Source: Dictyostelium discoideum
Lineage: Eukaryota
Direction: 5' to 3'
NCBI GenBank assembly: GCA_000004695.1
Contig: CM000151.3
Span: 2,848,001 to 2,912,000 of the forward strand
DNA: 64,000 bases
In this document: in pieces, positions 42,077 through 42,196 of the stretch
Numbering within the stretch: position 1 is the first letter of the stretch
Layout of the letters: each line of letters opens with the position of its first letter
The notes under the pieces: model-generated
Seen by the model: the letters and a program-made list of their open reading frames with translations, nothing else
Databases searched by the model: none
What the model was told of the DNA's origin: nothing
Position numbers and translations under genes: made by a program

Positions 42077-42196
42077 CAATTTTAACAGATCCAAAACAAA
42101 ATAACTATAGGTGTATAATTGAACCTGAATTTTATTCTGAATTTTAGGTTTAATTAAACCTCTACTATTATTTTGTTTTGTATCTGTTAAAAATGG
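42077..42196. repeat. Long inverted repeat / hairpin (about 33-bp arms, about 47-nt spacer)
   Basis: The left arm is ccaattttaacagatccaaaacaaaataactatagg (42077-42111). The reverse complement of the right arm (42159-42196) is ccatttttaacagatacaaaacaaaataatagtagagg. About 30 of 34 positions pair. This is an unusually long, almost perfect palindrome for an intergenic region. Confidence 0.7.

Follow-up and report, generated by a model that had tools for sequence, protein, structure and literature searches.

The trappc1 Locus and Its Upstream Region

We analyzed a 64-kb stretch of Dictyostelium discoideum DNA (hereafter, the window), with a G+C content of 21.6%. The gene trappc1 (DDB_G0273467) lies on its plus strand in two exons, 42795-42955 and 43085-43352, which were defined from open reading frames and from splice sites read in the sequence. 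Its product is identical (100%) to its counterpart in D. discoideum AX4 and belongs to Pfam Sybindin, and the next gene codes for a member of the Pfam family named after DDB_G0273449; these neighboring proteins place the locus at DDB_G0273467/DDB_G0273449 on AX4 chromosome 2. A search of the whole window against Rfam returned nothing at the gathering threshold, and no tRNAs were found. For comparison, the orthologous locus was taken from nine recently deposited assemblies by means of the trappc1 protein and the members of its cluster, which yielded nine loci of 12-15 kb (L001 to L009; ~115 kb in total).

The region upstream of trappc1 is unusually long (~3.4 kb) and holds three conserved non-coding blocks, at 40500-40950, 41250-41480 and 41600-41790 (for example, TCTCCCGTGATGATTTTTATCGTTTACAAGCAAA at ~41676-41710). 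They show 89-97% identity within the D. discoideum group and 70-83% in D. citrinum, D. firmibasis and D. dimigraforme, and are therefore better conserved across species than the hairpin described below. No Rfam match and no conserved open reading frame were found in any of the three. Upstream of them, 100 N at 40075-40174 mark an intergenic assembly gap.

In three of the related loci, NCBI gene models join far-upstream exons to trappc1 (L005, D. cf. discoideum, 6001-8538; L008, D. discoideum, 6001-8768; L009, D. citrinum, 6001-6818), and these exons correspond to ~40586-40740 and ~41617-41650 in the window. They encode 'M(I/M)(L/F)PLVYFNTCFWVDISSDD...' and 'MGAAILFISCYY...' in place of the conserved sybindin N-terminus, and the models are probably annotation artefacts. 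If they are based on RNA-seq, they would imply plus-strand transcription through the hairpin region.

A Long Palindrome with an Exceptionally Stable Fold

Upstream of trappc1, at 42036-42240, lies an imperfect palindrome of ~205 bp; a BLAST comparison with its own reverse complement aligned 203 nt at 79.8% identity (E 6e-44). A repeat search defined its inverted-repeat arms at 42059-42132 and 42140-42213, each of 74 nt and 81% complementary to the other, with a 7-nt spacer (42133-42139) that is the apex of the palindrome and, in the folds, the terminal loop. The core hairpin (42059-42213, assigned to the minus strand as discussed below) is located 580-735 bp upstream of the trappc1 ATG (42795). 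A preliminary description of this DNA had reported a 120-bp hairpin with arms of about 33 bp in this place. Arms and position were confirmed, as segments of ~34 nt are present at 42077-42110 and 42163-42196 with about 30 of 34 positions paired, but these form the middle section of a longer inverted repeat, and the size was underestimated, since the palindrome extends beyond them. The 47-nt loop described earlier did not hold up either: within that stretch, AACCTGAATTT pairs with AATTTTAGGTT as an apical stem, leaving the arms only 7 nt apart. Pairing is also lengthened outside the 74-nt arms by TCAAAATATATTTTACAAAC...GTTTCTAAAATATATCTTTGA, and the resulting 231-nt fold (-73.6 kcal/mol), which together with the self-alignment delimits the full palindrome, has a continuous stem. 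Overall, the geometry is that of a stem of ~65-90 bp closed by a small apical loop.

The minimum free energy of RNA from 42050-42222 was -59.8 kcal/mol for the plus strand and -58.6 kcal/mol for the minus strand. Shuffled versions of the same segment gave -20 and -22 +/- 3.5 kcal/mol, respectively (z = -11.3 and -10.3), and none of 200 shuffles was as stable; thus, the earlier statement that the near-perfect pairing of the arms exceeds chance expectation was borne out, and the palindromic structure is genuine. In a control on genomic sequence, the hairpin ranked first in stability among 6358 sliding windows of 160 nt taken from both strands of the 64 kb (mean -18.1, sd 7.5 kcal/mol). The next most stable unrelated windows are coding sequence with 40-49% GC, and the hairpin has a GC content of only 21%. 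On the minus strand, the 155-nt hairpin folded at -55.1 kcal/mol at 37 °C (-0.355 kcal/mol/nt) and at -73.3 kcal/mol at 22 °C (-0.473 kcal/mol/nt), values below the miRBase energy threshold of -0.2 kcal/mol/nt quoted by Liao et al. 2018 (PMC6161686). An Rfam search of 41000-43500 gave no match over the hairpin at E <= 10.

Positional Correspondence with ddi-mir-7095

Liao et al. 2018 (PMC6161686, Table S3) list a predicted primary transcript of mir-7095 at DDB0232429:2889969-2890628 in minus orientation, together with an upstream motif, TTTGTTTGAAATTTGGTAGTTTTTG, at DDB0232429:2890769-2890795. This motif matched once in the 64-kb window, on the minus strand at 42770-42794, with one mismatch consisting of one extra T, and 0 matches were expected by chance. 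The single match sets the offset between the two coordinate systems at exactly 2,848,000, which makes the window positions 2,848,001-2,912,000 of chromosome 2, so that the predicted pri-mir-7095 transcript, which had been drawn from poly(A) RNA-seq coverage, occupies 41969-42628 of the minus strand and encloses the palindrome at 42036-42240. The T-rich motif ending in G (TTTGTTTGAAATTTGGTAGTTTTTTG, 42769-42794, minus strand), proposed in the same work as the promoter or transcription start site (TSS) motif of pri-mir-7095, abuts the trappc1 ATG, and the two transcription units are thus divergently arranged. The preliminary description is corrected here as to strand and orientation: the miRNA gene occupies the minus strand and points away from trappc1. 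As both strands fold equally well, this strand call rests on Table S3 of PMC6161686.

We then considered which element of the published interval could be the annotated precursor. When the minus strand was scanned for folds across 41900-42800, only the hairpin lay below -0.25 kcal/mol/nt (-0.34 to -0.37 at 37 °C), the remainder being at -0.21 or weaker. The earlier reading of the hairpin as a miRNA or siRNA precursor is therefore well supported, as it falls inside the published interval and is the sole strong hairpin there. By its coordinates, the hairpin is very probably the precursor stem-loop of ddi-mir-7095, a published miRNA of D. discoideum whose small RNAs are reported to depend on the Dicer-like nuclease DrnB; from position, we infer that this hairpin, and not another element of the interval, is the annotated precursor. 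K-mers of the hairpin were absent from the supplements of Liao 2018, Meier 2016 and the 2024 Amoebozoa miRNA paper, which show other miRNAs only.

The locus is already known, being described in the literature and named in miRBase nomenclature, and its recognition is a correct call and no new discovery. ddi-mir-7095 was reportedly first described by Avesson et al. in 2012 (RNA 18:1771). Its miRBase-style number and the sources cited for Table S3 suggest that it belongs to the 17 miRNAs of that study.

The TSS assignment is the weakest element of the published mir-7095 annotation, because the motif lies ~555 nt from the hairpin base and because the 141 nt between motif and first read are the widest gap in Table S3 of PMC6161686. 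The stretch that separates the proposed TSS motif from the first poly(A) read includes, at 42641-42765, a run of ~125 nt that is nearly pure T when read on the plus strand and A on the minus. Reads cannot be mapped to sequence of this kind, and the run probably explains the 141-nt gap of Liao et al. An alternative T-rich promoter motif could be a T-run on the minus strand at ~42359-42382, which is nearer, with ~140 nt between it and the downstream hairpin base. In addition, lookalikes of Dictyostelium-type 5' splice sites occur on the minus strand at 42586-42587 (...TTTTTATAG before and GTAATTATTT after the junction) and at 42394-42395 (...TTTTAAAAAG before and GTAATTTTTT after it), and judging from these motifs an intron might be removed from pri-mir-7095 on the upstream side of the hairpin. 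Open reading frames of the pri-miRNA region and of trappc1 exon 2 were looked up by exact match in transcript and population contigs, which returned nothing on record.

In the 2024 Amoebozoa miRNA study, seven bona fide D. discoideum miRNAs passed stringent criteria; mir-7095 is not among them, which speaks against the identification, and the authors state that not all earlier miRNAs were recovered. Besides the fold energy of the precursor and dependence on the miRNA Dicer (DrnB in D. discoideum), the miRBase high-confidence criteria, as quoted in PMC6161686, ask for at least 10 reads per arm, a duplex with a 3' overhang of 0-4 nt (ideally 2 nt) and a common 5' end in at least 50% of the reads. 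mir-7095 may thus be a low-abundance or imprecisely processed locus, as would suit a hairpin that is young and has a long, almost perfect stem. Of the clusters that failed in the 2024 study, a chromosome 2 location is conceivable for one only, ddis_Cluster_1065 (144 nt, -0.575 kcal/mol/nt); its identity with the hairpin was rejected, as the best 144-nt window here reaches -0.508 kcal/mol/nt at 22 °C.

Distribution among Dictyostelium Genomes

Four D. discoideum-type genomes carry the hairpin, as does D. cf. discoideum, and a partly eroded form is present in one divergent genome. Identity to the window was 100% in L007 (D. discoideum), ~96% both in L001 (a D. discoideum-type assembly) and in L008 (D. 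discoideum), 91% in L005 (D. cf. discoideum) and 81% in the divergent genome (L002, GCA_054859235.1), where the hairpin is present in its eroded state. It is absent from D. citrinum (L003 and L009), D. firmibasis (L004) and D. dimigraforme (L006), in which no comparable hairpin was detected within 2.5 kb upstream of trappc1. In these four hairpin-less genomes, the distance from the conserved upstream block (~41600-41790) to the trappc1 ATG is ~145-250 bp, whereas it is ~1000 bp in D. discoideum. Comparison with the three species thus delimits an intergenic stretch of ~0.9 kb (41791-42760), the hairpin included, that only the D. discoideum group possesses.

According to the 2024 Amoebozoa miRNA study, almost every miRNA of D. 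discoideum is restricted to that species and located in intergenic DNA that D. firmibasis lacks, and the absence of the hairpin from the shortened intergenic region of D. firmibasis follows the same pattern. As the hairpin is missing, together with ~0.9 kb of its surroundings, from D. citrinum, D. firmibasis and D. dimigraforme, the locus looks like an evolutionarily young, lineage-specific miRNA gene. With regard to the doubt raised in the preliminary description, that the sequence might be single-copy and structurally unconserved, it is indeed single-copy in the sequence searched, but the hairpin is kept across the D. discoideum group and eroded in L002.

A G+C-richer patch within the predicted pri-mir-7095 (42395-42480) is almost wholly missing from D. 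cf. discoideum (L005) and from L002, indicating that the upstream part of the pri-miRNA is variable even among close relatives.

Constraint, Erosion and Origin of the Stem

To evaluate constraint, the identity of the hairpin was compared with that of its two flanking spacers in four comparisons. The hairpin showed 96.1, 96.6, 93.1 and 87.8% identity, against 91.2, 92.8, 83.3 and 72.5% in one flank and 93.9, 95.7, 91.6 and 77.2% in the other. That all four comparisons within the D. discoideum group give fewer substitutions in the hairpin than in both flanks is no more than suggestive, since the flanks are low-complexity DNA. Among 87 base pairs, 67 were invariant, 7 had one-sided changes, 1 had changed on both sides and 12 carried pairing-breaking changes in at least one sequence. 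The covariation score was 0.037, compared with 0.032 in shuffles, and 77 of 500 shuffles scored at least as high, with six orthologues, of which five are distinct, entering the test as few and very similar sequences. L002 has lost 10 nt from one arm and its opposite arm has diverged, whereby the fold weakens from -73.6 to -44.5 kcal/mol and its best 150-nt window falls to the background fold level. This arm deletion with its loss of fold indicates that the full stem is not under strong constraint.

These observations bear on a neutral explanation, in which a recent local inverted duplication arose inside pri-mir-7095, the annotated hairpin would be another, weaker fold within those 660 nt, and the palindrome would give rise to small RNAs only incidentally, if at all. 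It draws on the erosion in L002, on covariation no higher than in shuffles, on the lineage-specific nature of the region and on the fact that identity with mir-7095 is read from coordinates only. Nevertheless, every other fold in the interval stays at -0.21 kcal/mol/nt or weaker, the hairpin has accumulated fewer substitutions than either flank, and a transcribed stem of 65-90 bp would be an obvious Dicer substrate; we therefore regard this explanation as unlikely.

We also considered a MITE, or fused terminal inverted repeats of a DNA transposon, from which any miRNA would then be derived, as the thug-S miRNAs are. The palindromic form and its absence from related species along with the surrounding DNA would agree with such an origin, and Liao et al. 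2018 (PMC6161686) report that the thug-S element gives rise to some D. discoideum miRNAs; the same authors, however, handled mir-7095 as a single intergenic locus and excluded the multicopy thug-S loci from its set. The preliminary description had left room for a tiny MITE and proposed a search for dispersed copies and target-site duplications (TSDs). Only the orthologous copy was recovered from the window and the nine related loci, and no second copy exists in the 64 kb or elsewhere in the ~115 kb of 12-15-kb loci. In AX4 itself, the duplication on chromosome 2 would be expected to give two copies of the site. No direct repeat flanks 42036/42240 (...gagtcaata on the left, ctcctttta... on the right) or 42059/42213, so no TSD was seen, and the hairpin-less species differ by ~0.9 kb of unrelated A/T-rich DNA and offer no precise, clean empty site. 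On the sequence covered, a transposon origin is accordingly very improbable.

We likewise give little credence to a role in cis, in which the hairpin would act as a DNA or RNA structure for trappc1 or for an upstream transcript of the plus strand, be it as a cruciform within a bidirectional promoter region or as an intron or 5' UTR element of a long trappc1 isoform. The equal folding of both strands and the far-upstream exon models, which would make the hairpin intronic on the plus strand, would allow it, but those models lose the conserved N-terminus and look artefactual, trappc1 keeps a 90-95% identical first exon in the four related genomes that have no hairpin, and the transcript published for this stretch runs along the minus strand (PMC6161686).

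Returning to the hairpin as the mir-7095 precursor, we looked for a parent sequence of its arms in the syntenic intergenic DNA of the hairpin-less species, where only marginal, unconvincing matches were obtained. The base of the right arm (armR; AAAAATGGAAAAAAAATGAATATTTGAGTTT) resembles D. dimigraforme DNA (L006, 5896-5941) over 46 nt at 78%, with an uncorrected p of ~0.005, and armR (TTTTGTTTTGTATCTGTTAAAAATGGAAA) also resembles D. citrinum DNA (L003, ~5848-5890), with an uncorrected p of ~0.035-0.05, in a set of 16 tests with mononucleotide shuffles. These similarities may represent a remnant of the source of an inverted duplication, or chance in A/T-rich DNA.

It is possible, and we put it forward tentatively, that the locus is a proto-miRNA, that is, an inverted duplication of ~205 bp in ~0.9 kb of lineage-specific DNA, driven by a promoter region that it shares head-to-head with trappc1 and yielding several imprecise, low-abundance 21-mers in the manner of an hpRNA or siRNA locus. 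On this proto-miRNA reading, the duplication would postdate the divergence from D. citrinum, D. dimigraforme and D. firmibasis, and the stem would already be degenerating in the L002 lineage. Several low-abundance, imprecisely diced 21-mers would also explain why mir-7095 failed the stringent criteria of 2024.

Proposed Biogenesis and Comparison with Known Systems

The biogenesis of mir-7095 can be proposed by analogy, the pathway being carried over from other D. discoideum miRNAs. Pri-miRNAs of this organism are RNA polymerase II transcripts that accumulate when DrnB is absent (PMC6161686); all 17 miRNAs of Avesson 2012 are reported as strongly reduced in drnB- cells, and RbdB is described as a partner protein in miRNA maturation (PMC4894637). 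At this locus, RNA polymerase II would transcribe a capped pri-miRNA of at least 660 nt from the minus strand, divergently from trappc1. Its stem of ~65-90 bp would be recognized in the nucleus by the Dicer-like nuclease DrnB and the dsRNA-binding protein RbdB; one duplex of ~21 nt, or possibly several adjacent ones, would be excised, and one strand would be loaded into Argonaute. As the long stems of mir-1180, mir-7102 and mir-1185 are each processed into two adjacent duplexes (PMC6161686), the same would be plausible for a stem of 65-90 bp here.

Among known systems, the closest is ddi-mir-7095 as listed in Table S3 of PMC6161686, an intergenic single locus beside DDB_G0273467 with the same interval, strand and upstream motif, the sameness being positional. 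The ddi-mir-1177, mir-1180, mir-7102 and mir-1185 loci are likewise Pol II hairpins that lie between genes or in introns and are processed by DrnB/RbdB. In the 2024 study, the precursor of ddi-mir-1177 is similarly long (151 nt, -0.43 kcal/mol/nt), but this miRNA is conserved across group 4 dictyostelids, whereas the hairpin described here is confined to the D. discoideum group. With thug-S-derived and other MITE-derived miRNAs, it shares an inverted-repeat origin of a small-RNA-producing hairpin; those miRNAs are multicopy, in contrast to a hairpin that is single-copy in everything searched and has no TSD. Young plant MIRNA genes and hpRNA loci born by inverted duplication offer a further parallel, as they share a long, near-perfect inverted repeat, lineage specificity, weak constraint on the stem and decay in one lineage. 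Unlike them, however, this hairpin has no parent sequence or target gene that we could find, and the similarity of one arm to ancestral intergenic DNA in D. citrinum and D. dimigraforme is marginal (uncorrected p 0.005-0.05, 16 tests).

Overall, the locus illustrates that a genuine miRNA precursor can be picked by a sequence-only reader from a genome with 78% A+T. The only new information is comparative, namely the map of presence and absence across new Dictyostelium assemblies and the erosion of the stem in one lineage; it extends the published species-specificity of D. discoideum miRNAs and opens no new question. If the proto-miRNA reading is true, the birth and death of miRNAs in a protist would have a naturally occurring example in this locus.
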